Assembly: GCA_008636045.1 (NCBI GenBank)
Contig: SNRW01000008.1
Location: forward strand, 1 to 49,791
Direction of reading: 5' to 3'
Length of the DNA stretch: 49,791 nt
Source of the DNA: Streblomastix strix
Taxonomy: Eukaryota
A program made the translations under genes and the position numbers. Below are positions 13,360 to 39,013 of the stretch, in pieces; the stretch's first letter is position 1, and every line of letters starts with the position of its first letter. The notes beneath the pieces were generated by a model. The model did not search any database and was not told the origin of the DNA. It saw only the letters and a list, made by a program, of their open reading frames with translations.

Positions 13360-13933
13360 AGAAAGGTGTTCTGGTATCGTTTATGGCAGGATTTATTAAT
13401 GGAAGATTTGAGTGGTTTAGTAGTGAAAAAGGTGAGAAAGTTACAAGAAAAAATTAATTAATATGTGGAAATATGGTGTTAAAATTTGTGTTTATGAATT
13501 GGCAATTAGGTGAGCCGTCAGGCTGTGAGCCTCGAGGGGGTATGAGTCGTTAGGAAATGATTTTTGAAATGTGACCCCCTGGTGTATAAGTTATGCATTC
13601 TAAAAATCAAAAAGGGATAAGATTGATAAATTTAAAAGTTTGGGATTTTGCATTGATTTGGAGTTAATTTGAGTTATTGTAGGTAATTTATTGACAAATT
13701 TACATATAACTCCGCCAGAACTCCCTTCTCTCTAAAATACGGTGTTTATATTGGAAATTTGAGATAGAAGTTAGTCTTGTGATAGATTTGATGAGATTTA
13801 CACCTCGAGACTTGAGGTGATTGACAGTGGGTAAAATATAATAAAATACCGTATAAGCCGCCACGCCTCGAGCCTCAAGGGGTCTTGAGTCGGTCTAAAA
13901 AAAATATTTTGTAATCTGTCCCCTTTTTCATTT
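13360..13933 (+). repeat. Left terminal inverted repeat
   Basis: Reverse complement of 38441-39013, e.g. GGCAGGATTTATTAATGGAAGATTTGAGTGG; outer half nearly identical, inner half more diverged. Confidence 0.95.
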
Positions 13934-14941
13934 CTTAGCTTTCTTCTTTTTAGGTTTTCTAAAGAGTTTTTCCACTAATTTCTCTTATGTAGTTGAAGTA
14001 GATATTAATTATGACGTTGTAATGTAGTTTTTCTTCATTTTTGTATGTTTCTTACTTCCGAGTTGTGCGTCTATCTTTATACACGCTTATGGATTTTCTA
14101 ATGCATCGCATTTATAGCCTGCCATATTTGCTAAAAAAGCATTTTTGCCGTAAATATCGTTGATTGGTGGTCTTCCCCAGTCTAAAGCACCAATATCATA
14201 GACTGTATTCAAGTTTTGTTATTTAAGAATGTCTTTCTAAATTGCTTCAGATTATCTTTCAGTTAACTTCTCTTATGCAACAGTTCGTACTGGTGATTAG
14301 TCTTGAAGCATTAAACTTTAACCAAGGTCTCCTTAAGATTCTGTAGGATATTACATATTTAACTATTAACTTTCTTTTTCTTTCTATCTTGGACTTGTAA
14401 AGTTCAAAAGCTAGTTCAATTATTATTCTTCTGTTACAACTGGTCTACGTGATCCCAAATTCATGGATGGTTAATCTATTCTAGCATTAATATTTTTCTC
14501 ATATCTATCAGCATTTTCTACATATTTTTCTTATATTATCTTTCCTTCCTTAGTTATTTTGAGGTGTGTCTCGTATAAATCTTACAATAAACAGTTTGGA
14601 AAACCTGGCTTATAAGTAAGTCGACGCGCTTTATGATCCGTTAATCACAACACACCAGTCATTGCGTCAACAAGTCTTATTGACAGATCAGCTTTACGAA
14701 TTTCTTATTCAATAGAGCGTTTTTTCTGATTCTGTCATTCTTTATTTATCTTTACCTCATTTTTGCTTGCATTTGTTATCCCCATTCTGAATTATTTGGA
14801 TGTTCTGACAAAAAATCACTTGATTTCACACCTGAATGTTTCTTTTTTCCTTTCTTTTGCATATCTTTTAGATATAAACAAATCAATATTAACCAAATAT
14901 CCAATGACGTTGGACAGCTTAATTTTTGTTTATTCTTGCAT
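13928..14941 (-). pseudogene. Hypothetical element protein with basic C-terminus (KPKKKKAKK*)
   Basis: Coding-like frame with internal TGAs ending at the inner TIR edge. Confidence 0.45.
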
Positions 14942-14959
14942 ATTACTTATTGAATAGAT

Positions 14960-15850
14960 CATAGTATTGTAGTGTAAGAATTATTCATGAATAATGTGGT
15001 AAAGTTTTGATTCTTCGAAACATTACATGCGCATTAAAGTAGAAGAATTTCTTGATTATTCTAATTTTTTAAATTAATTATTATGTGTCGCCATTAAATC
15101 AGATCCAGAAATTGAGTTAAGATTCATCTTAAGATAATATTATAAGCAACTTAAGATGGAATAACTTAAAGACGTAATTATGCTAGCATAAGATGTTAGT
15201 GGATAAGAATCATCGTTGAAACTTATGTAATTCCTCAATGACCGATGATGATTTAAAGCTTTATGGTTTATTCTTGTTACAAATCGTTTATATCATCCTT
15301 AGGATTGTAAATCATCTGTTCTGACTCTGATTCCGACTATGTTTAATGGAAAACATCTATCCCTAGTGGTTGCTGTTCATTCTAAGTTAATTCTCTGAAC
15401 AATATGCCCATTAATCTCACTTATTATCTGAATCAAGACTATCTTGAAATAGATCATAACTTAACATCATCTCCTGGACGAAAATTTAATGAATAATCAG
15501 TTAACAATGATAGAACTTAAAAATTATCTGCTATTACTGAGATTCCTAAGATAATATTTAATTTCAACTCAGCATTCACTAATAAATATATCGATGAAAC
15601 TAAATCTCAGGGTTATTTGTATTCACCATTATTGATGTACATAATATAAACTTAGATAAATTCGTTCATTGATAGTTAAGAATATTACTTCAGAACAATT
15701 ATCATAAGTAATCGTAGTGTAATATGCTTTAACAATGCTGTGAACGAGCATACTTTGAAGCTATCAGATGGTAAATTTTCTCCTAATATTAATGAAAGTA
15801 TTGATATTGAATCATCTGCAATTAAATTCATAAATCTTTTTTTTGATTAA
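14960..15850 (+). pseudogene. Conserved element gene of unknown function (possible minor capsid)
   Basis: Collinear similarity to 42540-43380 (-), e.g. TGTTTAATGGAAAAC and DSQEYYFR/DTNEQYFR. The function is a guess. Confidence 0.4.
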
Positions 15851-17131
15851 TTTCTTTATAAGTATTTCATGCTTAGCAATGGATGTTATTATCGACTAAT
15901 TGGTATAATTCGATTATATTCGCCCACAACTAATAACTATTTAACTTCAATTGAGTCATTTATAACAATTTCATAAGCACAGTCTGTAAAAATAAGGCAT
16001 TTACACGGAAAATAGTATAATATTAATGATAATTCTTAAATTTAAAAGAATCTTAAGTAACCAATGAATGTTTAATAAATAACCATGAAATCCATCATAA
16101 ACGGCATAAATCTATTCCCTATTAGAATTATATCTTCATTATCTGGTTTAAATTCTGAAGATTAGGTGTAAATATACACTGTTGTCAATCGATAATAGTA
16201 TTAAGGGTAATATATTCCTGATGTTCTTTCATAATTTTTTATTTATTGAATAATTATTTCTGAAAAATATAAGATTATGGTATCCATAACGCATCATCTT
16301 GTCACTAAATTTATATGAGTAATTAACTTGTGCTTTAGATTTTTATGATAGATTATAAGAAAACGGTGCTAATCCTACTGAAAATAATATATCATCTGTT
16401 AAATTCATTGATCTTGAAACTTGGTATTTAAAACTAAATATGATAACTAGAGTTAAGAATGTGATACTTCTGTTTTATGCACTTTCGTGGGTAATTTCTA
16501 ATAGTATCTTCAGATGTTGATCATATCTATCTCAAACTAATTGTAAAGAATTATATTTTAAAAAATTAGCGGATAAGGTTTCTCAAATGTATGTTATAAG
16601 TAAAATCTTATTGATGCACCTGTTTTATTGGGTTAGAATATGTTATCTTAATAATGTATGATATGTTAAAGTAAATGTGTAATATTTACTATATTTGATA
16701 ATTATGGCAGAAAAATATCATTGCAAATCATGGATATGTACAACAACTTGTTACTGGAAATTTAGACTTAATGATGTCTTTTTCGACGGCGAAAGTGGGG
16801 TCAGACTGAATTAATTTATTTTTAGACGGCTCGATGCGCCGATCCATCGGCTTAAATTCGCAGGAAGTAAACCTTGAGACACGCGGCTTAGAGGGTCACA
16901 TTTGAAGTAATTTTAGACCGACTCAGCATATCTCGAGGCTTGCGGCTTAATATTAATAAAATTGGATCATTATTAATTATCAGATCCACTAATGATATTC
17001 ATTATTTTTCCATTTCCTTTCCTAATTTGCAAAAATAAATTAACATACGTTTTACGTATACTGAATCGTTTCACGATTTGGCGACGTGATTAGCAGTCTC
17101 TCATCCACATCTTACTGCACAAGCATTAAAC

Positions 17132-18918
17132 TCATCCTAAGTCTACCATCGTTCCACCTACTTCACCTATGATTTCGAAGTTTAAAATTTATGGATAAGG
17201 AGCATCATCGAATGTAAATCAAATGATTGCATCACAGAGATAATGCATTTACGGCGTTATCTATGCATTAGTTGGTTAAGGATAAGGTCTTGTTGCGATA
17301 AATTATATAAGATTATTTTATTCATCTTAGATCCCAGCGACTGCATCAAGTATCAATGAATTATCTATGATACCTGGAGTTAAATACTCTTATAAAGTGA
17401 CTTGAATATTAGTTCTTGCTCTCAATTTAGATGAGTTACATCCGCATATGAATGAATCATCAGTTGCCATCTTCTATGCCAGCATAAATTTATGAGGATA
17501 ATATATTTTTACTGCTTTATTTTTAACGTATAGCGTAGTATTATAGAGTATATTCTCTTTATCTTCCAAACCAGCACCTATATAACTATAATAATTTCCA
17601 TTGGAGTCATATATAGTTTGAATTTGGAAATTCAATGAATGATTCAAATCAGATGATGCTGAAACAAGATCTTACTCAACAAAACACTCGAACATCTATC
17701 CAGTAACCATGGGATTTAACGATACATATTCTTATGGGATAAGATATCGTTGATCAATTTCCAAATTGAACTTCTAAAATTACACTGGTAACATCCATAT
17801 TTGGATATTATTTCAATGCAAATGTAATAAACAGCGCTTTTACGTTAGAATATGACTTTATACTTTGCATAGAACCAACATTTTCAGAAAATCCACGAAA
17901 TTGGAAGTTAATTGATTGTGTACGTATAATTTACGTAGGAGAATTCAATATTTTTTGATCTCTTATCATATCAATGATTGATTCTTCATTTTACATGTTG
18001 AAACACAAATTATTAATATCTAACTTAGTAAATCTTGAATCCTTAATTTAACTAATTGAGTTTGATGGCCTTCTTTCATCCGGAGCTTTTCCTTACATAT
18101 TGTCAAGTCTTATCGAAAATGCATTATATTTAGTTTCATCTGTACGTAGCAAGAAAACTATATCAGGTTTTTCTGGTGTAATCATTTAATAAACTAGATG
18201 ACTATTGATTATAGTATCAGACTTTTTTTAACTATACAACCTTCAGATCGAATAAGAAATCTTAGGTCCATAATTATAAAAATAATGATGCATAATTACG
18301 TGTTAACACTGGAAATGAATTGAAAATAGGATTTAACTAATTTAAATCAAGTACTCCAGCAATTGTTATTAGATATGGAATTAAATAATTAAAGCTTCCA
18401 GCAGCAAAAGCTTCAACTGATATATCTATGAAAACTCCACAATGTCTTCTTCCTCTAACTACTGTTTCTAATGGTGATACACTCACGGAATTATTAGTAT
18501 TTAAATCAGATAATGAATTTGCAGCTATCACAGCTTATTCTCTTGCATAATTTGATATCTCCCATAGTTTTGTATTATCTTTACTGATTGCTATTTATTA
18601 GAATGGGCCACAAGCAGTTGAGAATCCAAGACAGAACTTAATATGTTCATCATCACCAATTGGCATTTAATTTGCTTCAGCTACAATTTTCATTGTACGA
18701 ACCCAATCTGCTTACATATTAGCTAATTCATTGAAATTTACTCTAACTCTAGCTGTTGCTATTGCAGCAATAAGCGTAACTAATCCTGGCACTAAATTTG
18801 GTTATAATGCCAATCACTCAAGGAATTGTTCTTTGCCAGTTAACTTAACATAATTATACCATTGAACATGTTGCATTACCTCTTACATCTAATGGAGCTC
18901 TTGTAAATCTCTATCCAT
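17132..18918 (-). pseudogene. Putative double jelly-roll major capsid protein
   Basis: ~595 codons; FCLGFSTACGPFQQIAI...NYAREQA, GVLDLNQLNPIFNSFPVLT...LFLQL, C-terminal TPQMHYLCDAII.FTFD resemble protist Polinton MCPs; internal TGA and frameshift. Confidence 0.7.
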
Positions 18919-19182
18919 CACTTATAAGTTAATTAATAAATTAATCAAAGAATTTTTATCTACTTATACTAAAACTTTATAGATGAATCGGTGCTTATCT
19001 TTGCACTTCTTACATTGCAGAATACGTTGAAACATATTCAGAATATTATACTTTTGCTAACTTTTATATGTAATCGTTCGCTGAGAAACTCATATTGCGT
19101 ACGGTTTTTTTATAATTTAAAATAATGTATACGTTTTATTATTCAAACAATCGCTCAAACAAGAAAACATACTATAATTATC

Positions 19183-19389
19183 ATGGGATTCTTTTCTGGA
19201 TTGAAGAATTTTGACTCAAAATTATTAGGCTGAATTAAGAAAGTTGCAGGTTGGGTTGCTCCCACGCTTCATAAAGTGATGGCGACTCTTAGCGGACCAG
19301 TAAACATGTTACATCCAGATGCTGCGTAGATAATAGGTACGATTGGTAATATTGCAGGCGGAATAGAAAGGCATTTGAATAAACGTTGA
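19183..19389 (+). pseudogene. Small amphipathic peptide, adenovirus pVI-like N-terminus
   Basis: MGFFSGLKNFDSKLLG*IKKVAGWVAPTLHKVMATLSGPVNMLHPDAAQIIGTIGNIAGGIERHLNKR*; one internal TGA at 19231. Confidence 0.55.
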
Positions 19390-20148
19390 TAAAAACAATT
19401 GAATTACTTATTATTTTCTTATTCTGAATATAATGATGGAGGAATTGTACTAATTTGAATAATCTTTTGGCAAAACTCATAATGCTTCAGATTATGATGA
19501 GTTTAAAATATTTGAAGCACTTGTTGACAATAAGGAATTAGATGATGAGCAAAAATAGTTTTATGAATAAAAAATAAGAAAAAAATAATTGATTTGGCAT
19601 AATTACAAAGGAAACTTAATAAGTCATTGGTTATCTTCACTATTTAGATACGTTATGCTAAGTTAATTGATAATATGCACAAAACAGCTGATTATCATTA
19701 TCCATGACAAATCAATTATATAACTATTTCTCTTCATCACTTGCTTCAGATATAACATATTTCATTATTTATTATGGCTATTGATTCATATCCATCTTTT
19801 TCTTGATTTAATTGTATTAACTTGCGTAAAATTTATTATTTTCTCTATATATTTTATTCTTATAATCTTCATCTACGAATTTTTTCATTTGCTGCAATTT
19901 GCATCATAGATTTGTGAATTATTAATTCTTATTAATCCTTTAAACAATACATGCTATTATTCTGATTAATCTTTGATCAACTGAGTTTGCAGTGTTTCTA
20001 TTGTTGTTTTAATTAGATCTTTATTTTCATAATTTGATTTGAAGAGCTCATTAAAGAGCTAATTTAATGGTTTTGACATGTTTTATTACCCAATTTTCAG
20101 TTGAAACAAACAAAGTTTGCAAAACTAAATTCAACAATGAAGTTGTTT

Positions 20149-21500
20149 TCATAGTATTCTACCATTGAAAGATAATGTGTTTCTATCAGCACTGATTTGT
20201 AATCCTCTAGTATTATCACCAGCTTAAGATGCCATTGCGAATATTAAACCATAAGGGTCATTTATAGCAGTACTTGATGGTGTAAATATTGTCCATTATC
20301 CTTCAATAACGCCAGAGTTAGATGTTCTACTACATCCTAACTAAATCGATGAATTAGCTGTATTTGGAGCTGATCTGGATATTCTCAAACCATCATCATA
20401 ACTAGTTGCTGTAGGATTTAATTAAATATTACCTGAAGTAACACATGCAAATGTTTTTTTACCTGAAATTGATTAATCATTAACAACATCAACGAATCCA
20501 TTACCATTAAATGTTAATGTGTTTTCATCTGCGGATATCTATAAGCCTTTATTAGCCTAAAATTTTTAACCTGATTTTGATATGATAAAGCATAGTGGAT
20601 TTATATTAGTATCCACTGATGTTCCCATAATCCATTAGTTATCAATAAACCCACTATTTGAATACGGATCACAACCAAATTAAATATTACTCCATTAGTT
20701 GTTTATTGATCTACTTATTTGTCTCCCTTCGTTATATATACCATCAACTGTTGGATTTACTTATATTAATTTTTTGATTTTTTTTTCAGTAATCGTTTAA
20801 TCAGTAGCTATATCAACTACACCATTAATATCTTTAGTATCACCATTTGCACTTAATATTTCCGTAGCTAATCCTCCTGTTTTAATGAATTTAAGTGCAA
20901 TTAAGTTCCCATCGTAAGTTAATTATTAAGGATGAATATGATCATGTCTTGAATAATATGCAGAAGTACCATTATTTCGAATTCCATTAACTGCAGGTAC
21001 AATTTACGCTTTAGTTTAAACATTAATAGGATGAAAATGATCAATTCTAGCATATGCAGCAACAGTACCATATGATCCATCTACTGAGTCACTAACTGGA
21101 ATAGTATCTGCAGTATAAATTGGATATTAATGATCAGATCTAGCACAAGTGTTATCTGAGCCGATATTACCAACCGAAGTATCTTTACTTGGCAATACAA
21201 TAGATACTTATAGTGGATGCTTATGATCTCCTCTAGAATATTCATTTGAAATTCCTGCAACTCCAGTTCCACTATCAGCTAATGGTGTAGCATCACTTGC
21301 AGGAGTGACTTAATCAGGAACTGTATCTCCACTGTTGTACTAATTCTAATCATACATCCATACAGTTCCACTTTCAGCAGAGAATGCAAAATCACCATTG
21401 GCAGAGTTTTCTAATTATTTTATATCAGTGTTCAATAAATTGTATCCTTTAAAATGTATTTATCTATTAAGTTCTTCAATAGTTACATTAATTTATTATT
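20149..21500 (-). pseudogene. Phage tail-fibre-like protein
   Basis: Four R.DH.[HY]P repeats, KFIKTGGLATEILSANGDTK, and two tandem repeats ending GLQISAD.NTL.FNG; start uncertain (may extend to ~21890). Confidence 0.7.
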
Positions 21501-21915: not shown

Positions 21916-22946
21916 TCAACCACTTATTAAGCACTATGAATTCATACTTGTTAAAGTACCATATATTAACATAAATTCATCAAAAACTAGATTCTAAATA
22001 GAATTTACTTCATAAGGTTGCTTTAAATCACTTTCGCTAAGATCAACACCAAAACTTATAACATGTGATAATATACTTGCAATTTTGAACAAGTAACTTG
22101 GCCATTAAGCAACAAAAAACACAGTATTTTTGCAATGTCTACAGTCAGATACTAAATGAGTTAGTGTCTTAACTAATTCTGATAAAAATCTTTAAATATC
22201 AGCATTGCTTCCAATATCATCAAAAATTAGCGGCGAATTCAGCAGAGAATTATGAAATAGTATGGGTATTTTTATAATTTTTAACTCCGTATCTCATTCA
22301 TCTTAAGAAATCTGAATTTTTCTTTCGAAATACACATTATGAATGTTTGCTGGGACAGTAAACCTCATAATCATTGTCGGAACGTTGTATTTCGTTATCT
22401 TATCAAAATACTCTTATTCAAATATCTCAGCAATTCCTCTAGCATAATCCTTTAGTTTTTCCATTTATTTTTCGATAGACGCGGATGCAAGACGTGTTGG
22501 ATTCTCTTTGATTGGTTTATTTTGAATAATTCTTTCTTTCATTCTTTATATATATAATCTGATTTGTAAGATATGTTTAGTTCACGTAATTTCCAATAAG
22601 TATAGACTTCTTTTACCGAATACTTGATCTCATTAAATTACGGTTCGAAAGATATTACTTCCTCATATGTTATGTTGGTGAATATGATATTCTTCGAGTT
22701 ACGATTCAATGCCATAGTCCTATCAGCACTAAAGTTAGAGAAATATAAAATGAAAGGATTAATTTTTTATTTATATATTACAATTAGTTTGCTTATTTGT
22801 GTTGTTTTCCCTGAGCCAACTGCGCCAATAATATAATGATTCACAATGATTAAGAATAATGAATTTCTGGTTAATGATTTAGTTTTGAATTCATCTAATA
22901 TAGAATTATCGTCGAATGTAACTGATTATATCTCTTCTAATGTCAT
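21916..22946 (-). pseudogene. A32/FtsK-type genome packaging ATPase
   Basis: Walker A IIGAVGSGKTT (~22800-22830); Walker B LIFDDIG (~22210-22230); frameshifted. Confidence 0.85.
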
Positions 22947-23449
22947 GCAGGTTATCTGTTGCAGCAAGTTGCTTTGGTTAGTTGCCAAATAAATCTGTTG
23001 ATATTAATAATTAATTCTATATTTTATGGTGTTAACTTCATTGTTTCCGTAATTTCATTATCTATTCCTGAATAACTTACATAAATATTCTCATTAATAA
23101 AGTAATTATGGAGTTATTTTGATGCGATTCTAGTGACATTAAATTTAATCAACTAAATATTTCAATTCGTTTATCGTAGAAGAAACGAAAATAAAATTGA
23201 ACATTAGAAAATTCATAAGAAAAATAAGCTTATTTTCATTGAAGTAAGTATTAAAATGAATAAATAGAAGATTTCATTAAGGAAGCGATTGAAAAATAAG
23301 ATGAGGAACTCGCTAAGATGTCGAGATATATATTGCATTTGAAGTTGTTGAATCTTAAAACTTATACGAAGTCTGACAATAATGGAAATCATGATAATGG
23401 TAATTAAAATTGAAGTTGAGTAAAAAATTCAATTTATTTATTTGGAATT

Positions 23450-24340
23450 TCATACAACATTTTTGATAAAATAACTTACATTAATTACCACATTTAACGA
23501 AGATGGAATTGATATGAGTGAATTAGAATTATTAATAATTTATCCGTATTAATTGATTAAATAATCCAGATATTAACTAATATTAGCTGATGAAACTGCT
23601 AAATATTACATATATAGTGTACCAATAAATTAAAGAATAAAATTATCATCAACGGTTCCCATTATGAAAGGAATGCTAGTCGAACCACCTTGTGATACCC
23701 AACGAGGATATTCATTAATATGAACTATTTCGCTGCTATGCAAAACTAACGAACCTTAACTTAAACCACTTACATTATCAGTAACTTGAAATTATCTTCT
23801 TTTTGCATTTGATAGAAATATTACTTAACCATTGAATTTTATTTAACTACAATTTTTATCTAAATATTCCTCTATTTATATTTTAATAATCGTCGTCTTT
23901 ATATATTTAAAATGATGCATCACGTAGCCATGTTCCAGTACCTTCAAAATAAGAAGTAATTACCTAATTATATTCTAAAGTTGATACTCCACCAATTGGC
24001 TTACAAACATTAGCACCTAAATAAATACACTTGGTTCTTAAACAAACCCTCTAGTTATTCTTAGCCCTGCTTATTTTGTAACAATTAATAAAGAAGTTGG
24101 CTATAACGTAAAATCTGAAAAAGCATATGATCTCTCTTTTATTATGAAATCGTCTATATCTGATTTATCTCCATTAACGAGTAATATTTATTTTTAAGTT
24201 TCATCAGTTTTTATAAATGAATTTGTAACTATAGGTTAAGTAAATGATTTGGTCTCTGTAATAGTTTAAGCTGTATCTTGTGTTACTAAACGTGATAAAT
24301 CAACTTATATTTTCTTAAAAAAATAACTAAAATAAGTAAA
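23450..24340 (-). pseudogene. Second short fibre-like structural protein
   Basis: LVTQDTAQTITETKSF...FIKTDETQKQILLVNGD fibre-like motif; homologous to 43450-44680 (+). Confidence 0.5.
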
Positions 24341-24359
24341 ATATTTTATAATTTCATTA

Positions 24360-25301
24360 TCAACTTATTAAATTATTTATTTTCACAACTTCTATAGTGA
24401 TTCTATTTCTTATTATTATTTCTTCATCTTCTCATAATCTGATTTCGTTTATTAAAGTTCTTCTTCAGATGGATCCTCCAAATCGCTTGAAATTTGTTCT
24501 TCAGAATATGCAAAGCTCGCCGGCAACGAAGTATCTTACATATCCTTTTAACAAAAATAAACTGATTTCATAGCGAAATATTGATCAAAAATCATCAATA
24601 CCAATGTCGAATTCAAGCTAATCAGATAATCTGACAAAGTATTTGTTCAAATGATATAACTTCTCAATACTATTCCATAACGCACTATCAATGTTAGAAA
24701 TAGAGACATTCTTGATGAGAACATCATTTATTCTTAAAATCTCTTTCTTCTTAAATTTTATCGAAGTGAAACTATTATATTTCATCAATTGTTCTTCCAT
24801 AATAATCTCAAAATCTTTCACTTCTTCTTATGTTGTTAATGCCCAGACTTCTATATTGTTAATGGAGTTAAATCTGAAATCTTCGCCTTTCTTATGAGAA
24901 TCGACGCTTCTCCAGATGCAATCAATGATGAAATTTTATACTTCTAAGGTAAAATTGGATTAATATATATCTTTTACAACTCATTCTGGCTCAATTAAAG
25001 CAGTTTCTCGTAAAATTTCTTTAATTTTATGAATATTATATGCTTTTCTCCTTGATCTTTCTGTTTAGATTCCTCGTTGCAATTCTTTCTAATAGATGCT
25101 TAAATCTCTGCTTAGTAATGGTGTCTGAATCGAAGACTATATTTATAATGCTGGAATTTGTACTGCCTTTTTAAATCCATTTGTAATAGTTTCATCAATT
25201 GCTTATAATCTGGCTTTATCCTCCTCAGATAATTCTTTCTTAACAGTATTCACATGTTAATTTTTATGAACTCTTATTTGATTTATTTATATTGTTGCCA
25301 T
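24360..25301 (-). pseudogene. Hypothetical element protein(s)
   Basis: ELSEEDKARLQAI matches ELIDEDKNRLQLI at 47859+; includes the track ORF MKDFEIIMEE. Confidence 0.45.
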
Positions 25302-25373
25302 GATTTTGCAAACCTTTTAGGTTGCTTGCAACTTAAAGTTGCGAGTTTAAATAAAATCAAATCAGACATCAAG

Positions 25374-26018
25374 ATGAATCAAGCATAAGCACTCAAGAAT
25401 CTCATAGAAAATGGTATATCTATTGAGTATTTCAATGATAGATATTTCATGATAGCAAAGGAGAAGACAAAAGTATATGAAGTAGGAAAGAAACAACCAA
25501 AAACATTGACTTAAGCTTAATAAACTAAATTGTTAATGTAAGCACGAGGTGGAGGATAAACAAAACCAAAACGTTCAGCAAAACGTTAAATTGCAAACGA
25601 TTTTGATGACGATGTAGATGATGAATTCTAATAAAGCGAATATTCCCGAAGGGATCAAGTCTAAACGTCATAGAAATACAGTGATGATGAAGATATTGAA
25701 TAAACCATAACCGAAAAACCCGCTAAACCTCCAAAACCAACTCCAGAGAAGGCAAAAACAAACCGTAAATAAATTACTCTTTACCATAAGTTGATCTTGA
25801 AAAATTAATACGTTTGCGAATTGAAAATGCATTTATTAAACAAAAACATCAAGATTCAATAAAGTAAGTTGAAAAATATAAGAATAAAATAAAAATGTTT
25901 AAGTAAAAAATTCAGCGGTAGAATAATAGCGTCAACCATAAACTCCACCACAAGCTGAGAATCCCCAACTTTAGGATGAGATTCCTGAAATACGATTTAA
26001 CGAAACAGATTTATGATG
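25374..26018 (+). pseudogene. Hypothetical element protein
   Basis: LKNLIENGISIEY...QARGGG matches FKNLVENGTNIEY...QVRGGG at 47804 (-). Confidence 0.5.
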
Positions 26019-26302: not shown

Positions 26303-27506
26303 TCACAATTTAAAATAATCTTTATATTTAGTATCTAATAGACATATATCTTTTGCAACTAATTTGCAATATTATTCAAGTAATTCTACTATTTTTAAAT
26401 CAGACTATGATTTAAGTAATTTCACCATTACATTTCCATTAGATTATTTAATAAATTCTGCTAATTCATTGAAATTTCTTCTTTACATAACGAAGGAATC
26501 ACCAGTTTTTGTATAATCAAGATGTATCAAAAGAATAATTCCAGGTTAAAACGATAAAAGTCCTTTGTTTTACTATTATATCTTAATATCAAACAGTTTA
26601 TTCTTTTATTATCTTTTGTATTAACCTTCAATATCATCATTATCATTAGCTTATTTTGGGTAATATTTGTTGTCATATGCAGAATGAGGAATCTAATTGT
26701 ACATTTATACCATCTGTTACATCAAATCATTATCTGCAAACTTCTCAGAATCATTGCCAAATCCATTGCGAATAGTCATGAACACTGAATCAACAACTCT
26801 GCTTCGATTAGTGAATTTTGAGTCGGTAAAGAATGAAGTAAAGTTATTCTCTTAACTGAATGTTTTCAATATATTTCCGCTGAATCCTTTCTCGTCATCG
26901 CCTCTAATGTTAGTGAAATGATTATTCTTAACTAATTTTTACAACGCATTCATGATTTAACCTGTAGATTTATCTCTCAAAGGGAAACAACGAGATATTT
27001 TGTATTAATATTAATGCAAAAAAAATATATTTAATTTACACGAACAATATGTTTATCCATTAAGGAAACTAAATCAAATTACCATGATCCAAATATTGGA
27101 GAGAAATAAGGACGATTCAACTTAAATAATTGTTTAATATAATAATCAGGTGGAATTTCATGTATTTTTTGTGAATGTTTTCCATGAAATTTCTTAAAAT
27201 GTTCAATTTTTGATTTGAAAGGGAATTTTAGAGGTTTGCTTGGTTATTCTAATTCTTGGTTTTAACTGATTACCGCGGAAAATTACGAAGTATTTGCACA
27301 TTTGATTAATCATGCTTCAAATCATATCACATATATAATTTCTCAAGCTATTTTTCATTAAATTTTCCGTAACTATGCGTACTGGTTGCTGCTTCGCAGA
27401 GATTTTATTTATTCAGATTCTTAATAAATTCTTAGAACTTCATTTAATTCATGTTACGATAAGCTGTATATTAAATCCATTAATTTGTGTCTTCATAATG
27501 CGCCAT
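26303..27506 (-). pseudogene. RVE (DDE) integrase
   Basis: RPYFSPIFGSWQFDLV, CININTKYL, IRGDDEKGF, RVVDSVFMTIR, MYNQIPHSAY; frameshifted. Confidence 0.9.
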
Positions 27507-27639: not shown

Positions 27640-30418
27640 TTTTTAATTATATAATGATCAGTATTAACACCATAAACATATGGTGAACAAGCCTGATTTC
27701 TAAGAACTATTGTTTTTGTATTGATACCGCTGATTCCAAATCTTTATTATATAACTTATGAAAATATTTCTTACTTATGAATTAATGAAGTATTATTGAC
27801 TTTTGTTATTATATTTTTGTTAGTTTTATCTTAGAATTATTTCTTATTTATTTATGAATTTTATTCTTATATCATTCCTATCAATTTCATAATAACTTTT
27901 TAATTCGTATTTCTCACTTCGTGATTAAGCCAAATAATTCTTGTTATTCTCCATATAATAACACTTTGGAGCTAATATTAAGCAAGTTGTAGCTTCTAAT
28001 TCAATATTCCACCGTATAATATTCTTAGTATTAGAATAATCATTGCTTGCTGGAAAGAAATGAGGATGTAACTCTTTCCATAATTTCATATCTTTAATTG
28101 GCCAACTCTCATGAGCTATAGCCAAGCATAAACTATCAGTATCACCTTAAATAACATGAATATAATCCATATCTAAGCAAATAATAAGAAAATTATAATA
28201 GGCATTGAGATAGAAGTACTTTGAGTTATCCATTGTAAAGTAAGCAACTTATAATGGTGTTGAGTATTAACACCTCTTCTTTTCTAATTCAATTATGAAG
28301 TAATTCTCAGAAATCTACTTGTCAGTAAGAAAAGTATTGGCCGTATGATGTTTCCATACGTTTTTCTTATTGCATAATCTGAAATCTTATTATTTCTCAG
28401 TGTTAATTGAATCATAAAAAAAAGTAATCACTTCAAGTTTATTTTTCAGTTTTTCACCTTTATTACCTTCAATATGAGGTTTACAACGAAGATTTATATT
28501 AGTTTTATCAAATTCATTGAATTAACAGTGTTTATTAAAGACAATGAGCTATTTAATATCATCAATCACTAACTGGCAACGATCAATAAGAAACCATAGA
28601 TAATAATTATTGAATTATATATATTCATCATGAGTTAATAATAGCATCATTAATTTTGTTACTTCCATATCATGTTACATGTTATTTTTAATCATATTTT
28701 CATATATATGTTCACCAATGGTCTCTTTATTAGAAGTTATCTTAAGATTACGCTAAATAATAGGAAAATTTATGAATTCATTGATGCATTCATCTGGTAT
28801 ATATGCTTTGATTTTTGCAATGAAAAGATGTACGTGCTTGTTTATGATGTTTTCATCAGAAGAGAATCGAAATTTATTGAATATGAATTAGTTGACTTAC
28901 TCTTAATCGTGAATGATATATTTAACTCCTCCTTGCATATACATACTACGCATTGTATAAAGAATTAATGGATGTTGCTCGTCACTCATGCAAGAATCAT
29001 TGAAACTGTTGAAATCTAAACAAATTATATTGTCAATGATATACAGAAATTAATAAGAAACAATGCTGGAATCTCGCTTATTAAATTTATGTATTTTTGT
29101 TTTACCAGCGATGTTTTCTCGGTGAATAACGAATGAATAGCTGCGAATCATATCATTATGAAGCAATTCATAAATTTATTAATCGGTAATTGTCATTGGT
29201 AAGCTATTTAATTCGCAAAATTTCCTTAATTAAATCATTAGTCTTGCAGTTTCTTTATCTTTGTTCGACGCATACTAATTACAATACAAACAATAAGGAA
29301 TAACATTTGTTTTTGAATGTGATTTTTCAATATCTATTCTATCAAGAGTTAGCTTAATATCATAAGTATATCTTGCCTAACACATGTGACAACGTTAAGT
29401 TGAGAAAATATTATGAAAATAATTGTAATCGTCTTTCGTTATATTGTGATTTATTCTTCGTTTTTTACATTTATCTTACTCATTGTAGGAATTAACTTTA
29501 GATTTTCAATAATCTAATGATAAAACAAAGAAATTCGCATTACCAATAGGATAATAACAGGAGGAAATATTAAAATTCTTATAGCAAAAGGCATATTTCT
29601 TTAAACAAGATAACTTTGCAAGAGAAATATTTTACAGTAAATCTATATGAAAATCTATGTAATCTTTAATTCTATTTTCGATTGCAGATAATAATAGTTG
29701 TGATTCTCTTTTTAAATCATTGATCGAGTCAATCTTCCCAATATCTCTAAGAAAATCATCGAATTCCATATTTGTACCAACATAATTCTTAGCATCATTG
29801 AATTCTAAATGAACGGAATTATCAGCTGATTTAACAATGATATGTATTGGGCAACCTCTTAGTCCAGGGCGGTCAATGATTTCATGCATAATTGATTTAA
29901 AATTCATAAATATTAGCGTTGTTGCAGATTTCATTCAGTCAAATCCAATAACCGGAACATCATAATATTGTGGAACCTCATCAGCATATTTATTATCATT
30001 ACGAATTTATTTTGCTTCAATGAATATCTGCTCAAACTATTTCTCAACATAGTTATCTTAGGACTGATCATAAAAAATTTATTTGATATAGTTCTTTGTT
30101 TTAATTGTTGATGCAACTATTGCAGGAGTAGGAATAGGATGATTTCTACCGGGAACTTTCTATATTTCAGTTTGAAACCTGAATGTTAAGTAGTATTATG
30201 TTGGTTTATACTCTGCTTTTTGATTGTGAGATAAGAGATATCTATATGTTTTATTAGATGTAACATGTGGAACAAATGGTTTCGGAAACTTCTTTAATGT
30301 AACATATTTAACAATTTTAATATTGTTTTACTTGCATTCTATCTTGTGTGTATCCATTTTTCGTTTAACATAATGACTTATATCTTACGAGAATATAGCA
30401 TGATTCTTATATGTGGGA
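27640..30418 (-). pseudogene. Protein-primed family B DNA polymerase, exonuclease and polymerase part
   Basis: VPVIGF (Exo II), ICLDFNS (motif A), HVIQGDTDSL (motif C), LAPKCY; stops and frameshifts. Confidence 0.9.
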
Positions 30419-33400
30419 ACTACTTTAAGGAATTCAATTTTTAAATAAAAGTGGGTTAGTTTTATATATAATAATAGTACTATATTTAAAAATATAGATA
30501 ACTAATAAAAATTTAAATAAAACTTGCAAATATTCCATATTCATGGAGATTATTCAAAAATAAATTAATGCTTATTTGAAATTTTTTTTTCAATCAAGAT
30601 ATAACTAGACAAATTATCTAAAAAATAGAATTATTATTATTTTAATTAAATAAATGCAAACACTTTTAATACTCATTTTTGCATTATTATCAATAAATTA
30701 TTACAATTTAGCAAATATTAATGCTCTGTGTATTAAAAGTATTACCAACATTAAATTTAATAAATAAATAATATAAATTAAATATATTTAATTTAAATTA
30801 TTAATTAATTCATTTATGTTATATTAATCTTATTATTTTATTAAACATTTGTAAATATAATCATCACTTTAACAGTTAATTTATCAAAACTTTTAACAGT
30901 TCATAATTTAAGAATTATATTTATTTATTAAATAACTATTTAATGAGCAATAAAAGCTTCATAATTATTACTTAATTTGCGTTTGAATTTATTTTAATAA
31001 AAAGTCTTTTTTTTGTTATTTCTACACAATCATGTTTTAAAATTGTTACTAATTTATGATATAAATAAAAACTTATTCATTTTTTCATAAAATCTAAATA
31101 AATTAATATCATATAGAAAAAATAAAAAAATTGAAAAAAATAAATGTTAATCGTAACTTGATAATTATTTATTTATAAATTTGAAAAATAAAAAAAATAT
31201 AAATTGAATGATAGAAAAAGTAGAAAACATGTAAAATATTTAATATAAAATGAAATACTTCAGGTAAAACATAAATTTAATTTCTTTGAAATAGATATTT
31301 AAAGAAAATGTAATAATAATATCTCTAAGAATTTGTTATGAGATCTACTCTATTAATGAAGATTACCTTTCAATACTTCAAGCATAAATCCTGTCAATTC
31401 TTTGATATGTTACTTTTGGAACATGATTTCCATTGTTTCACTCGCCTCAATAAGACGTCCTTCAGGATTTTGAACAAGTATGAGAGCAAATTATTCAGCC
31501 CATTCTCCTTTAACTTGACAAAGACCTCGAAATATGTCTCCATATGGTGCACGATATCCTGTTTGTTTACAGTATGCAATCAGTTTACCTAATTCACAAA
31601 GTTCTGCATATGTTTATACTGCTTTCTCAAGTGCACCACAAGATAAATATGCAGATAATGCGAAGTTCAAGTCAATGTTTCGAAGGAAACTACCAAAATG
31701 GTTCTGATACAGTGATCTTCCCATCTCTTAACCATCTTTCTGCCATGTCTTTATGTCATTATGGTTCAAATGGTCTGAATTACTCCTACGATTCTTATTC
31801 ATTCATTCGAGTTAGTTCAAATAACACAGTAAGATATTACATTTATGGTGGTGCTTCTCCTCCAATTGGTAATGCAGTCTTGAATCTTAGGATCGTTTGA
31901 GGTGTTATTAATACTTCTACAGGTTACAATAGCTGCCATTTTAGCCGCTTCAACATAATTCTATGCTAAGAAATTAGCTTCAAATTACTAAATAAATAAG
32001 TTTTCACATCCACTCAGCTTTGGACGACCTGTTATTCTAACTGCAAGTGGAACATTCTACAAATTCTATGTGATGTATGATACAATACCACGTTCATCAA
32101 CTTCAATCTAAAGTACTTATTCTTGTACATTCACTCCAATCAATCAATCTTCTATATGTTCACTAACAGATGTGAATATAAGAGATGTTGATATTTTAGA
32201 CATAACTACAAGAGTAGCTGTTCCATTCTCAAATGCTGATAGAATACCCATAGCAGATATTAGCAATATAAGTCCATATCTTTCTGAATAATCAATTGCA
32301 ACAGAGAAATCATTTGGATCAGAATAAATGACATCAGCTGATGCACGCAGTGCCGTCACTCCGGCTGCAATTGGACTAACTTCATTCATAAATAACTTAC
32401 TTCCAGCTGCAATATAGAATGATACATATTATGTATTCTTCTTCTCTCCATTATTGATCTACATACTTCTAATTAATTTCCCAATTATTTGGCTCATTGG
32501 TGATGCAAATAAAGACATCATACTCGTTTCTTATCTACTCTCAAGTTACTGAAATTCAATCCTGCAAGTTATGAAAGATAAATAAAAAGAATTTGAAGAT
32601 TTAACTAAATTTTAAATTTTCATTCATATATATTTGATGATAACACAAGTATAAATGATTTTTCATCAATTCATTTCAAATATTCAATGTTTTCTGTTAT
32701 CATTTTGGATTTTAACCTAGCGAGGAGGTCAAGATCATATATTTGAAATAATTATTTGAATATTTAAAAGAAAATTAATAATAAATTGAGTTTAGTTAAT
32801 GAAATAAATATCAAAAAACCACTATAATAAAGCAGATATTTAATTTCGGGTGTTGGATGATAATTTAAGTGAGTCAAAGTTTTGAACGTAATATCGTATG
32901 CTTCAATAATTGTGTAATTCTAGTTTATAATTATTTAAAAACTATACTAATATGAGAATTAATGTGGACAATTAATAGAATTAAAAAATTTAACAAATAT
33001 TATCAGAAAAAATAAAAAAATAAAATAAAAAAATTAAAATTCTCTTTTTTAATCAATATATATTAATAATTATTTAAATTTATGTTTGAATAAAAAATTA
33101 AATAATGTAAAAAGATATTCAATATTAAATATTTTGTTTGCCTATCACATAAAATGAGTACTTTAATTTCTGTATAGTTTTAGCTCACGATATGATTATT
33201 TATGAAGTTATTTATATGTAAAATAAATATAAATCTCTATATTTAATTAAAATATTAATTTAAATACTGAAATTAATATTCGTTTATTGATCAATTTGCA
33301 AAATATTTCTTTTCTTAATATTCTATTTCATTAAAATATAAAGCTGTTCTAAAATAGTTACTTATAATTTTAGTATAATTATAAAAAAATTTTAAATGTA

Positions 33401-33581
33401 TAATCATTATAAAATATTATGTTTTATATTAAAAAAAATTAAATTAAATTTTAGTTTATTGAATCTTTACGGTGAACAACTTCTGAACATTTTTCATAAA
33501 TTAATGTTTATGCATATTAGTTTCTGTTTTAAATTTTATTTTCAAAAAAAAACAAACCCTTTTTGAATTCATTTTAGTAGT
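30419..33581. mobile_element. Insertion into PolB with imperfect terminal inverted repeats
   Basis: Ends ACTACTTTAAGGAATTCAA and rc ACTACTAAAATGAATTCAA (16/19); AT-rich arms around a clathrin fragment; no TSD seen. Confidence 0.6.
31340..32560 (-). pseudogene. CHC: Clathrin heavy chain fragment (propeller end, linker, start of repeats)
   Basis: NDFSVAIDYSERYGLILLIS..G, IGVNVQEQVLQIEVDE..IVSYITQNLQN..LA, NYVEAAKMAA, TPQTILRF, ERWLRDGKI align with clathrin HC; stops and frameshifts. Confidence 0.88.
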
Positions 33582-35090
33582 CCTCAGATAGAACAAATTT
33601 TAACTCCTAATAACTTCTCAACTCCGATAATATACATGAGATGTTGATTTCCATCTACTTCATTAAGAAGAAGAATATTATAATCGCGTGCTGGTTAAGT
33701 TTCATTAGGAAAGTTAGCGAATAATTAGTATTCACAATGTGATTTAGCCGATTAATTGCCGTAAAGAATTTCGATATTCTTATCAAATTATTAACAATTA
33801 ATATTGATATTGAATTTCTAAGCAACTTTCAGTGAATCATCTCAGTTAAATCCTGAATATTTTTTAAGAAATTCATGTTAATCTTCCTTATCGACATTGT
33901 AAAAATCGAATAATAAACATTTGCCCTTAGCAATTCTTGAATATCGATTAATTTCAACACCTTTTTAATCAGGCATAGTTATGCATGTTAGATTATACCA
34001 GAAACAAGTATTATAATCATCATCGCAGTGAATATATTTTATGATGTTCTTCATATTCTTATGTATTGCAATGAGTTCATCCACATTTTTGCCCGGAAAT
34101 GGTAGTCTATAAGATATAATTTACATAAAAAATATGACATCCATAAGTTCTTTAGTATCCAGAAGTTATTTTCTAAAAGTTATTTTTTTACCGTTGTTTT
34201 CATCTTAGAATCGATATTTCAATTAAGATATTGTCTTGTTCCTTTTTTACATAGGAACATCATATTCATCTAGAATGAATTCACTTCTTTAAATTGCAGT
34301 ACCAAAATCAAAATCACACTTGAATGATCTTCCATTTTCATGCGTATAGACTCTTTCGATGAATAAGCCACAATCTTCTGATGAGGTGATGTGATTGTTG
34401 AAAAATTCAACTGTTACAGTAGTATGCTGACTCCCATCAGCATAATTTATGGATTCATCAGCATAATTAGCTCAATTATCTGCGATTACTTAAGATAGTA
34501 TATCAAATCTTGTTGATTTTGTTAGAAAAATGAATTCAGGATTCGTCTAAGAGAAATCATAGATCTTTGAATTATTATAATAATGAATCATCTTACGAAT
34601 TTCTTATCTGTTTCTTATTAGTATTTCACGTTCTTAAGGGTCCAAACTTGATTCAAAGCGTTAGAATCGTGCTTATAGTTATTCTTATTCCATCATTTCA
34701 ATGGAAAATTCTTATTCCAATCGTTATTCAAGATCTCTAAATTCCCTTTTGCGTTAATATTTTTATCATGCTTCTGCTATTTTCTATTTTTTAGTAGTGA
34801 AATTTGCATATGATTATTTATATTATTGTTTTCTTTACGCTAGTTGTTTCTTTTCGAAATCTTTTGGCAAAGGTTTTGCATTTTTTTCATATTCCAGTTT
34901 TGGGTAAATTCTTCGGGTTTTAATTATGGTGGAGGATGATTCTTACTTTACTTACGTGGAAGAGGTTGTTTTCGTTGGATAACAATATTAAGTTTTGCTG
35001 GTTTTTACTATCTATTTTGCTTTTATTTATGAAAATCTTTTGATAACGATTTTGCATATATTTTCTTTCTGGCTTTTGGTTTAAAACCAA
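33582..35090 (-). pseudogene. N-terminal part of pPolB (basic region, OTU-like domain, start of CxxC)
   Basis: DDDYNTCFWYNL ... NINI ... QHLMYIIGVEKLLGVKICSI*; joins in frame to 30418 when the insert is removed. Confidence 0.65.
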
Positions 35091-35388
35091 AATAGGCCAA
35101 TATCGTTAAGATTATACGCCGTGAGCCTCGAGGTCTGTCGAGTCGGTCTAAAAAATAATTTAGTATGAATTTTTAATTAATTTTAATTATTACGTTTTTT
35201 TATAAAAAAATTAATTATTGATAATTAAACTTTTTTTTTAAACAGTCATTTTAGTAAGTTGGCAAATGTCAGAATTAGGAAATGTCTCAAGTCGTCACGC
35301 CGCGAGCCTCGAGGTTTAACAAGTCGGTCCAAAAATAAATTCCAAATGCGATCATCTTCCGCCATCGACGGAATCTGTGGTTAAATTA

Positions 35389-38384
35389 ATGAAGTCTGCA
35401 ACAACGTTGTCTGCACATAATAGTTTGCATTTCACTCCAATCAAAGAAATTTATGAGTAAGATTCAGAAAATCAAAGAACACTAAAGTGGTTTAAAAAGA
35501 ACATATATGTATTACAATAGAAAAAACTTACCGTTGACTTTTTTAAACCATGTACAGCGTCAGACTAACTTATGATTGAAGTAAGTTGTAAATACTATAT
35601 TGCAGATAAATCCGTAAATGTGTATAGATATGAATGAGATCCAATAAAAAAGGTTTAGAAAGAGAAACAGATGAACTCAGACCTAGATAAATTCTATGAC
35701 ATATTTCTGTAATTTCAACAAACACCCGAATATAATGAAATATTATAAATAGAAACGGAATAAGAAGAAGAATGTTGATTACGTAAAGCATTATCTGATC
35801 TAAAATATTAGAATGAATAGATGAATATTGAGGCAGATCCTGAAAAGAAGGCTTAGATGTGGATAGACTTGTGTCTTATGCAGCATGATTTAGAAATTTA
35901 TCCAGTAGAATAGAAACATGTAATTTAGTATATAATGAAATAAGAAACTGTACTTAATAAATTAAAGAGATAATCAGAATAAGAAAATAAATAAACAATT
36001 GACGAAGGAGTTTTAATTGATAAAATCAACTTATATTACTATAATAAGATTGATTATGGAAAAACAGGAAAAACTATAACAGGATCTTGCATAAACATTG
36101 CAAAATGTCCTTGATTATCAGTGGTTGATATCGATATTAATAAATCATTAAGTAATGAATAAAGAAAAATAATCAGAGATGAAATCTTAGAAAAATTTAA
36201 TAAATCAAAGTTAAATGTAAGCTTAACTGAGACTGTGCATGGTGGATTACTTCTATATTGTAATATTGGATTTGAATTATTAGAGTAGAATTCAATAGTT
36301 GAGAAGATATATAATAATAAATATGATGTTGATATATTTGCAAGTGTTTAAGCATATTTCAATAAAGATTCTAAGGGAAGTTTGAGAAATATTGCATAGC
36401 CTGGAACTATAATTAAGGATAAAGTGAAAGATGCAATAACAGGAAAATGGATGAATGAAACAGACGAGATATTCACATATAAAGATCTAAATGACATATA
36501 TAACAAAAAAGATTTAAGTACTTTACAAGAAGTATTTGAGATATTAGATTTTGATATGGATGTGAAATACCATAAAAAACCTGAAATTAATGAAACTTTT
36601 AAATGGACTATTGATATGACAAAAGAATAAGCAGAAATATTAATAAATAGATTAAATAGCTTAGTTGTATATAATAATGCAAGGAGATCTGTAACTGAAT
36701 CAACTTTATTTGCGTTATTTTCATCAATAATTGGTTTAAAAGGTATTACACGAGTTGATGATGAGTATATTGATATGAGTTATGATAAAATGAAGTTAAT
36801 TCCTGGGTTAACAGAGAAAGCAAGATCAAACTTTAATAGCACTCGATATAAGTTTTGCGACAAATCATTTTTACTGCATTATTTATAGAAAATCGTTAAG
36901 TTTACAAATGAAAAATATTACTAGGAAGTATTCTTACAAACATTACGACACAAAACTGTATATTCTGAATAAGAAACAAAATAATAAACAAGTTGTGCAT
37001 AAAGTAGCGAAAGTTATTAATCAGAAAACGAAAATATAGATATAACTAAAATCATAATAAATAAGATAAATTTAACTGATTAATTTGAGTTATGCAGGTA
37101 TCTAAAATAAGATATTAAAGAATGATTATTAAAATATTGAAGATATCTTATCTGACATGACTGAAATCATGAATTATATGCACTTAGATAGTGATTCATT
37201 CCTTTTCAAACAATACAATAATATAGAAATGAAATATTCTATTGAATGTTAGAACAATGTTAATGTTTAGGATATTCTTCATAAGATTCTTGCCTAATTT
37301 AATAGAAAGAAGTCAAAACCACTATGGTAATTACAACTAACATGCAATTAAGTATTCCTTATTAAATAAATATAGTTTAAAAGTGATGATCTAAATGGGT
37401 TTTCTATGTTTAAAGTTAGAGATTCCAATAAGTTGATAAAATTAATATGGAATTAATATAGCCATATCAAAATCATATAATAGAAGTGATTTCATCAGAA
37501 AAAATTGCTGTTTAAGAATATATACTGAATTGGTTCTCTGCAATTATATAGCATCCAGAGATATAAACTCGGGTGTCAATAATATTAAGAGGAAGCTAAT
37601 GCTGCAGAAAGAATACTTTTACTGTTGTAATGTCTGAGTTATAATCTGGTTATTCATTGAGAAATATAACATCGTTAACTTCAGTAACAGAATAATTCAA
37701 TTAAATGCATGAAAATAAGGTATTTCTAGTGTTAAATGAGCTGAAAACATTCAGTAACGCAGTTGATCATGAAGCTGATAAACTTAAATCATTAATAACT
37801 GATCCAACACTAGAAATCCGTACAAAATTTCTTAATTCCAATATCACAAAGAACATATTAAATTTCATATTAGATTCCAATCATTTAGATCCTGTTCATT
37901 TAGATTAATCAGATAAACGTTATTTAGTATTTAACGTAATTCTAATTATAGAAAGAACTTTGAATACTTTAATAAGCTATTCTAGCATATAAATTAAGAA
38001 GATTTTTATGAAAATCTCTTAATATTCTTTATGAATCGTGATATATCCAAGTTTGACAAGAGAATTATACCATTAACCGAAGCGAAAAAGGAAATTATAG
38101 ATATTTCATTAGCGGACATTGATATATTCTGTATTAAATACTTTAAATAGTCAAAAGATGGTTAGTTATGCGAAGATGCAGTATAATGCTCATAAGAGTT
38201 TATGAAACCAGGAATATTCAGATTATAAATCCATAAGAACTTTGAAACAGTAATTAGGTCAAATCATGGTAAGAAACTTAGATATAGCGTTATTAAATAA
38301 GATAAATTGGAATAGTAATAAGAGTATTTCTATTAACAAGATCCAGAATATTCGTAAGTAATCAAAGTTAACGAAGATGATTGA
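35389..38384 (+). pseudogene. Prim-pol primase fused to SF3/DUF5906-like helicase
   Basis: LSVVDIDI, TETVHGGLLLY, DVDIF; EYILNWF...IILRGSQCCRKN (decayed Walker A), LVLNEL, KLKSLITD, SN...DKRYLVF. Confidence 0.85.
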
Positions 38385-38440
38385 GGAAAACATAGGCCGT
38401 AAAACGTCGTACTCAAAAAAGGGGGGTCAGATTGGCGTAA

Positions 38441-39013
38441 AAATGAAAAAGGGGACAGATTACAAAATATTTTTTTTAGACCGACTCAAGACTCCTCGAG
38501 GCTCGAGGCGTGACGAATTACTCAGTATTTCATTCTATTTTACCAACTATCAATCACTTCAAGTTTCGAGGTGTAAATCTCATCAAATCTATCACAAGAC
38601 TAACTTCTATCTCAAATTTCCAATATAAACACTGCATTTTTGAGAGAAGAGAGTTCTGGCTGAGTTTCATATAAATTTGTCAATAAATTTCCAACAATAA
38701 CTCAAATTAACTCCAAATAAACACAAAATCTCAAACTTTTACATTCTTCAATCTTACCCTTTTTGATTTTTAGAATGTATAACTCGTATACCAGGGGGTC
38801 ACATTTCAAAAATCATTTCCTAACAACTCATACCCCCTCGAGGCTCACAGCCTGACGGCTCACCTAATTGCCAATTCATAACCACAAATTTTAACACCAT
38901 ATTTCCACATATTAATTAATATTTTCTTGTAACTTTCTCACCTTTTTCACTACTAAACCACTCAAATCTTCCATTAATAAATCCTGCCATAAGCGACGCC
39001 AGAATTACCTTCT
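38441..39013 (-). repeat. Right terminal inverted repeat
   Basis: Reverse complement of 13360-13933. Confidence 0.95.

Follow-up and report, generated by a model that had tools for sequence, protein, structure and literature searches.

A stretch of 49,791 nucleotides from Streblomastix strix (assembly GCA_008636045.1, contig SNRW01000008.1; the whole stretch is called the window here) had been given an initial annotation that recognised, between positions 13360 and 39013, a Polinton-like endogenous virus written in a code in which TAA and TAG specify glutamine. This region was found to be a real, decayed and nested Polinton-type element of 25.7 kb, or 22.5 kb without a 3.2-kb insert, with a GC content of 27% and flanks of 25% and 23% (Table 1). 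The long terminal inverted repeats (TIRs) with AG...CT ends were as the annotation had described them: over 577 aligned columns there were 535 matches and 42 mismatches (93% identity; 92.6% and E 0 by blastn), 28 of the 42 being transitions, and the Kimura two-parameter distance between the two repeats was 0.077. The core genes lay where the annotation had placed them, but the integrase, ATPase and primase calls are motif or label assignments and 'fibre' describes four repeats, as detailed below.

Outside the element, a second penton-like gene, homologous to the one inside it, was found as three consecutive pieces on the minus strand. Residues 28–209 lie at 43090–42548, residues 216–237 at 39152–39087, in a frame that continues as far as the right TIR, and the part from residue 266 on runs from 13349 down to 12657. 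Thus both flanks are contiguous parts of one gene on one strand and the TIRs bound a single insertion; the alternative of two TIRs from unlinked loci was rejected. Remnants of an integrase, an HNH gene and an ATPase also occupy the flanks, and the arrangement shows that the element inserted itself into this second penton-like gene, which belonged to an older relative.

Table 1. Features of the element and of the gene that it interrupts (positions in the window; P numbers denote related proteins, L numbers metagenomic loci).
Feature	Position	Strand	Remarks
Older element's penton-like gene, 3' part (left flank)	12657–13358	-	homology
Candidate 6-bp target-site duplication	13354–13359		4/6 identical to 39014–39019; not established
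Left TIR	13360–13937	+	GC-rich motif copies at 13520–13564 and 13863–13907
Open reading frame (ORF), function not assigned	13928–14464	-	no Pfam or PHROG match
Putative penton (minor capsid)-like gene, broken	15245–16774	+	homologue in L002, E 1.6e-7
GC-rich motif copy, left edge of central block	16911–16946	-	inverted relative to 35-kb copies
[quoted passage not shown]
Small conserved gene upstream of capsid gene	19158–19352	-	fused gene models P0016, P0059, P0143
Fibre-like gene (putative function), four ~31-aa repeats	20149–21357	-	
Packaging-type P-loop ATPase, broken	21953–22946	-	Walker A/B and RH..Q motifs; homologues in L001, L002, L005
Conserved gene, function not assigned	23433–24382	-	homologue at 44251–44698
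Conserved gene, function not assigned	25368–25958	+	homologue at 47263–47810
Retroviral-type integrase-like gene, frameshifted	26303–27204	-	71% to P0304/P0305
pPolB, 3' part	27642–30412	-	exonuclease domain (catalytic residues lost), endonuclease VII-like insert, palm
3.2-kb insert splitting pPolB at CxxC motif	30412–33588		23% GC; 25-nt imperfect inverted ends (19/25)
Clathrin heavy chain fragment of the host, decayed (about aa 219–598), in insert	31287–32419	-	PDB clathrin E 2e-15, E 1e-5
pPolB, 5' part	33588–35035	-	Cys and His motifs
GC-rich motif, two copies (35116–35160, 35297–35341), right edge of central block	35116–35341	+	
Primase-like domain and superfamily 3 helicase, broken	36064–38384	+	archaeo-eukaryotic (AEP) primase type by motif; Walker A decayed
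Right TIR	38438–39013	-	
Older penton-like gene, middle part (right flank)	39014–39152	-	68% over 22 aa
Older penton-like gene, 5' part	42548–43090	-	E 3e-29

A putative major capsid protein with a double jelly roll (DJR) had been annotated at 17132–18918. The gene proved to be longer, running from 19093 to 17132, and to carry three frameshifts and in-frame TGA codons, two of which fall on arginine columns. The proposed fold was borne out, as seen on a model of its intact, 72% identical relative P0003 and not of the broken window copy itself. This model (pLDDT 82, pTM 0.86, from 39 diverse sequences) matched the PBCV-1 capsid in Foldseek with an E value of 1.4e-12 (TM 0.39 by query, 0.48 by target), and the matches to PBCV-1, EhV-201, iridovirus, Sputnik and mavirus capsids spanned E values from 1e-12 to 4e-9. 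All of the top matches listed were DJR capsids, with PBCV-1 and EhV ranked above Sputnik. An earlier capsid model (51 close sequences, pLDDT 57), which had given weak DJR matches, was superseded by this deeper alignment.

Searching with a capsid fragment returned 175 proteins, and all 120 among the matches listed were labelled Streblomastix strix (54–77% identity), labels that point to this oxymonad of the termite gut, or a near relative of it, as the likely host; UniRef already names some of the family 'Major capsid protein'. With a profile of 51 capsids, 210 matches were obtained among 1.84 billion proteins, including at least about 10 distant, near-full-length relatives on contigs of up to 22 kb among the 150 of 210 matches listed. 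A metagenome scan of 161 candidate stretches yielded six standard-code loci (L001–L006), each with a member of the capsid family; the ATPase was found in L001, L002 and L005, the penton-like gene in L002, a superfamily 3 (SF3) helicase in L005, and large genes with phage Gp10_C tail domains in L005 and L006. Scans of viral contigs revealed no relative. In a quick tree limited to 32 capsids of this family, the 17 S. strix rows made up one side of a branch with support of 100, on a long stem and with an arbitrary root. As the relatives use the standard code, the recoding of the virus lineage can be followed on such a tree.

The annotation had also held that the virus is adapted to the TAA/TAG=Gln code and is missed by standard-code ORF calling. 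This was upheld: across the whole window 12 ATG-initiated ORFs of at least 80 aa were called with the standard code and 188 with table 6. TAA and TAG (TAR) accounted for 181 of 212 glutamine codons (85%) in 12 pieces of element genes; in a host-type coiled-coil gene the share was 64 of 101 (p 2e-5 for the difference). Tetrahymena uses the ciliate code, with TAA and TAG as glutamine codons. In alignments with S. strix-labelled capsids TAA fell on glutamine columns in 26 of 35 cases, but this comparison is partly circular, and we therefore relied on a test in which TAR codons were masked as X and the proteins aligned to relatives not labelled S. strix. TAR then fell on glutamine columns at 7 of 39 positions in the capsid, compared with 23 of 556 for other codons (p 0.002), and at 4 of 39 compared with 12 of 833 in pPolB (p 0.004), overall a rate five to eight times that of other codons. 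The idea that TAR codons reflect mere nonsense decay was ruled out, since they occupy conserved positions of intact ORFs. Since the standard code would read 85% of the glutamine codons as stops, the lineage would be restricted to TAA/TAG=Gln hosts, and we infer that translation of genes so rich in TAR would be impossible under the standard code. The accessible text of PMC10120064 (Bellas 2023) already describes this code for S. strix viral elements, and the finding of a recoded virus in this host is hence not a novel one. As a separate observation, TAG stood at tryptophan columns in two of eight cases in the capsid gene (17135–19093); decay of TGG to TAG does not truncate a protein under this code, so that dead copies can pass for intact ORFs.

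The annotated pPolB is present, but it starts near 35035, is cut at about 30412–33588 by an insert that had been missed, and is dead in this copy. The palm motifs align across 17 pPolB relatives, and the relative P0134 matched DNA_pol_B_2 with an E value of 2e-9; a PDB profile search was uninformative. The Cys and His motifs of the 5' part we take to be vOTU-like. In the exonuclease domain, the ExoI DxE motif and the ExoII and ExoIII aspartates were kept in all 16 relatives not labelled S. strix. Both ExoI residues were lost in the window and in 12 of the 12 S. strix-labelled pPolBs that span the motif (a thirteenth does not reach it), and in 11 of the 12 the ExoII aspartate is gone as well. 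ExoIII was deleted in the window and in four of the five S. strix-labelled sequences spanning it, P0121 retaining both aspartates, while the palm DTD was present in five of six. The replacements in the exonuclease motifs are conserved across copies, indicating that the loss predates the decay of the window copy. In the openly searchable literature, inactivated proofreading in a polinton pPolB was not found.

The second replicase gene is best recognised by its helicase part, which matched DUF5906 (E 1.6e-15) and on which the PHROG primase matches also fall. The N-terminal domain matched the C-terminal domain of P0133, P0135 and P0293 and is assigned to the AEP type by motif only; for this domain the best phage tblastn match had an E value of 0.2 and the PDB profile search was uninformative. 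Four proteins of about 2000 aa (P0131, P0133, P0135 and P0293) combine an exonuclease-intact pPolB with a primase-like domain fused C-terminally.

The remaining core genes are less clear-cut. The integrase-like relatives P0304 and P0305 carry the UniRef label 'Integrase catalytic domain', rve_3 matched P0305 only at an E value of 0.11, and the third catalytic position is D instead of E. The RH..Q pattern of the ATPase is presumably A32/FtsK-like; its library matches were to generic P-loop proteins only and its PDB profile search was uninformative. The penton-like gene had no PDB sequence match, profile search included; in the Atlas its L002 homologue matched virus clusters, in one of which 10% of the members carry PF21507 V18-19, and this is taken as a lead only. 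The fibre-like gene owes its label to four R-x-D-H-x(1-2)-P repeats and had no match in Pfam, PHROG or phage tblastn. Kinship with the tail-like protein of L002 was considered and rejected, the two giving no alignment (E 0.04). No adenain-like protease was found, as in the initial annotation: Pfam gave no protease family among 37 element frames, where decay could hide one, none was present in 29 ORFs of L002, L003, L005 and L006, and two protease motif patterns had zero matches in a six-frame translation of the element.

Both TIRs contain a GC-rich motif of about 45 nt, which is also present on the minus strand at 16.9 kb and, in two copies, on the plus strand at 35.1–35.3 kb (three exact pattern matches, a number reached in 0 of 100 shuffles). 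It was not found in L001–L006, and a stable hairpin was ruled out (z from +0.7 to -1.3). The 16.9-kb and 35-kb copies are mutually inverted and delimit the block from capsid to pPolB. In the S. strix gene models P0257 and P0272 the capsid end is joined to the antisense penton-like gene, as in the window. Two models have the order that inversion of the block would give: in P0023 the capsid end adjoins the primase-helicase, and in P0299 the penton-like end and the pPolB start are joined on one strand. Other neighbours were seen in P0071 and P0100 (capsid, then HNH). At its capsid/penton junction P0257 reads a 16.9-type and then a 35.3-type motif, the hybrid order expected after a crossover between motif copies. 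It is likely, judging from these gene models, that the central block occurs in both orientations among copies, and recombination or template switching between the inverted motif copies would flip it. No paper on polinton inversion was among the matches listed in the openly searchable literature, which does not extend to subscription articles, the first descriptions of Mavericks among them. A different repeated motif lies at 8116–8321, 9119–9210 and 12517–12609, in three direct copies and one inverted, and may correspond, in the older element, to the GC-rich one.

The window copy reads as a fossil, broken after its insertion. In it, damage has reached the Walker A motif of the helicase as well as motifs A and B of the palm, and pPolB is divided such that residues 1–189 (P0121 numbering) lie at 33976–33587 and residues 184–1113 at 30429–27952. 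The insert between them is flanked by TA on both sides, yet the pPolB register is best kept by an insertion without duplication, and no other site in the window matches either insert end at up to six mismatches. With about 1.1 kb of a clathrin gene inside, it looks like a gene-capturing, non-autonomous DNA transposon of unassigned class. Point mutation and the arrival of this insert would have killed the copy after the element had integrated.

We consider it probable that the window holds a single, now broken Polinton-type insertion that uses the TAA/TAG=Gln code and interrupts an older element's penton-like gene, and that its family had a DJR capsid, an integrase of its own and, likely, a proofreading-dead pPolB together with a primase-helicase. 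Members of the family would package DNA in DJR capsids and integrate with this integrase. In intact members the non-proofreading pPolB would carry out protein-primed synthesis from the TIR ends, while the SF3 helicase would unwind the template and the primase-like domain would prime or restart synthesis, a mode that matches the pattern described in the accessible text of PMC11161782, where exonuclease loss accompanies helicase gain in mavirus and Polinton-like viruses (PLVs). A bolder reading, somewhat less likely than not, is that of an unlisted virus lineage of gut and anaerobic protists, with a capsid of about 650 aa and standard-code relatives in metagenomes, code-locked in Streblomastix, in which the exonuclease-dead pPolB and primase-SF3 may form an independent mavirus-like intermediate and the GC-rich flip motif may give two genome isomers. 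The loss of proofreading residues beside a helicase gene provides a natural test of the proposed exonuclease/helicase trade-off, and the invertible block, if true, would be a concrete route by which replicase and capsid modules are shuffled across these viruses.

Several observations weigh against this interpretation. The integrase, ATPase, penton, primase and fibre calls come from motifs or source labels, without significant library matches. The exonuclease loss is one inherited event among close relatives, sampled by a query derived from the window, and in P0131, P0133 and P0135 a primase-like fusion coexists with intact exonuclease motifs, showing that the two traits are not tied. pPolB and primase-helicase were found together in one copy, this element, and the inversion is based on four to five automatic gene models in which introns are not visible. 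In the masked test glutamate columns scored as high as glutamine for the capsid (p 0.001) and lysine columns were raised for pPolB (p 0.02), so that the amino acid is identified chiefly through the host-type gene and the code as published. Polintons and Mavericks make target-site duplications of 5–6 bp; beside the TIRs there was no perfect duplication, the best 6-bp pair agreeing at four of six positions, and excising this candidate puts the older penton-like gene out of frame. Finally, PMC10120064, in its accessible part, notes that short-read assembly can create false stops, a caution that applies to the breaks.

This last point and the lack of a clean target-site duplication, together with a 100-N gap with duplicated 127 bp at 43.7–44.0 kb, would also suit a short-read chimera of repeat copies, in which breaks and nesting are artefacts. 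Such an origin is very unlikely, since the older gene resumes at the matching residue on both flanks, pPolB resumes in register past its insert, and the excess of transitions among TIR mismatches and the CGA- or TGG-to-TGA changes at conserved arginine and tryptophan columns are those of real decay. It is improbable, though less so, that the two replicases are a one-off mosaic, a motif-bracketed primase-helicase module having moved into a pPolB element where it replaced, or was replacing, the polymerase. The primase-helicase gene does lie exactly between the motif at 35297–35341 and the copy in the right TIR, second replicases flanked by internal repeats are described in the accessible part of bioRxiv 10.64898/2026.10.13.758929, and L005 has the same capsid family and an SF3 helicase but no pPolB match within 18.4 kb of its 23 kb. 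Against this, P0023 links the same primase-helicase to the same capsid subfamily, in P0299, P0304 and P0305 the penton-like gene and the integrase are linked with the same pPolB, and the exonuclease substitutions are conserved among copies and not random.

A further explanation, possible if somewhat doubtful, would make the family nothing more than an ordinary part of MMPC_40, the Metamonada capsid cluster already in print, and the element merely one more copy. As far as the accessible parts of PMC10120064 go, its 820 S. strix capsid hits all fall in this one Trichomonas-type cluster, and its S. strix set may include the present family; in addition, the Atlas cluster closest to P0162, of 583 aa, has Parabasalia as its most frequent taxon, and some members, as mentioned, are already called capsid proteins. 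Speaking against it, none of the 51 family members matched DUF4106 of T. vaginalis at E values up to 10 (Pfam, without a positive control), the capsids are about 650 aa long compared with about 550 aa for the S. strix references in the supplement, and none of six locus tags was found among the supplement rows listed. The exonuclease loss and the block flip would in any case remain undescribed.

Setting these alternatives aside, the element of our preferred reading, a single Polinton-type insertion, works like a Polinton. With the Polintons and Mavericks of PMC4028283, accessible in part, it shares the AG...CT TIRs, pPolB, DJR capsid and a size of 22.5 kb without the insert and, putatively, the integrase-like gene, ATPase and penton-like gene; unlike them it lacks a detected adenain (a protease is reported there for 74% of Polintons), a clean target-site duplication and the exonuclease residues, and has an extra primase-helicase. 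With no protease found and a capsid tree that held its own family only, we have not filed it in Polintoviricetes. Mavirus, in what is accessible of PMC11161782 and PMC3671162, resembles it in a pPolB whose exonuclease does not work, in an SF3 helicase encoded by a gene of its own and in an integrase, here putative. As to virophages, which have a family capsid and a cysteine protease, neither a Sputnik-type capsid match (0/51 in Pfam) nor a protease was found here. The Tlr elements of Tetrahymena, again in a TAA/TAG=Gln host, are capsid-encoding, protease-less and integrase-bearing (PMC4028283, same parts), but have a pPolB-derived fusion with a superfamily 1 helicase in place of pPolB and primase-SF3. 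That the pairing of pPolB with a primase-helicase is unusual, as the annotation claimed, holds in so far as PMC3671162 calls it uncommon; dual-replicase elements are nonetheless reported in the accessible part of bioRxiv 10.64898/2026.10.13.758929. These polisuviruses resemble the present element in their two replicase classes, internal repeats by the replicase and nested or tandem integration, but here the repeats also delimit the block from capsid to pPolB, of which copies in either orientation probably exist.

The closest published material is that on the Metamonada Maverick-Polintons and PLVs of S. strix and Trichomonas in PMC10120064, the sole paper found for Streblomastix and Polinton in the openly searchable literature, which shares the inferred host, code, DJR capsid and high copy number but differs in capsid length and the DUF4106 match. 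Its accessible text held no gene-by-gene S. strix map, exonuclease loss or block inversion, and bioRxiv 10.64898/2026.06.19.733378 leaves Metamonada elements ungrouped in its accessible part. The present data thus give a full gene map for one metamonad Polinton-like element, from a group unplaced in current schemes. Not found in print were a capsid family of about 650 aa without a DUF4106 match and with standard-code metagenomic relatives, a family-wide loss of exonuclease residues beside a separate primase-helicase, and a motif-bounded block that is probably invertible.

Some minor features were also observed. L002, L005 and L006 are standard-code contigs of 13–23 kb on which phage-tail-like fibre genes accompany a capsid of this family, and are candidates for an undescribed PLV group; in L005, 324-bp tandem repeats adjoin the helicase gene. 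The remains of the older element occupy 8374–13358 and 39014–47810, with an HNH gene at 8374–8915, an integrase at 9919–10474 and an ATPase at 45849–44859, and keep homologues of the genes at 23.4, 24.1 and 25.4 kb in the younger one. Its penton-like gene is also split by a second insert (39170–42547; 19% GC, with a long (ATT)n tract), in which no inverted ends were found. The gap at 43659–44012, 100 N between exact 127-bp duplicates, is an assembly feature. A decayed hAT transposase lies at 3941–5732 on the minus strand (Dimer_Tnp_hAT, E 2.7e-4), and the host-type coiled-coil gene, at 87–3206 on the plus strand, encodes 1039 aa with a C2 domain and shows 21-nt periodicity.

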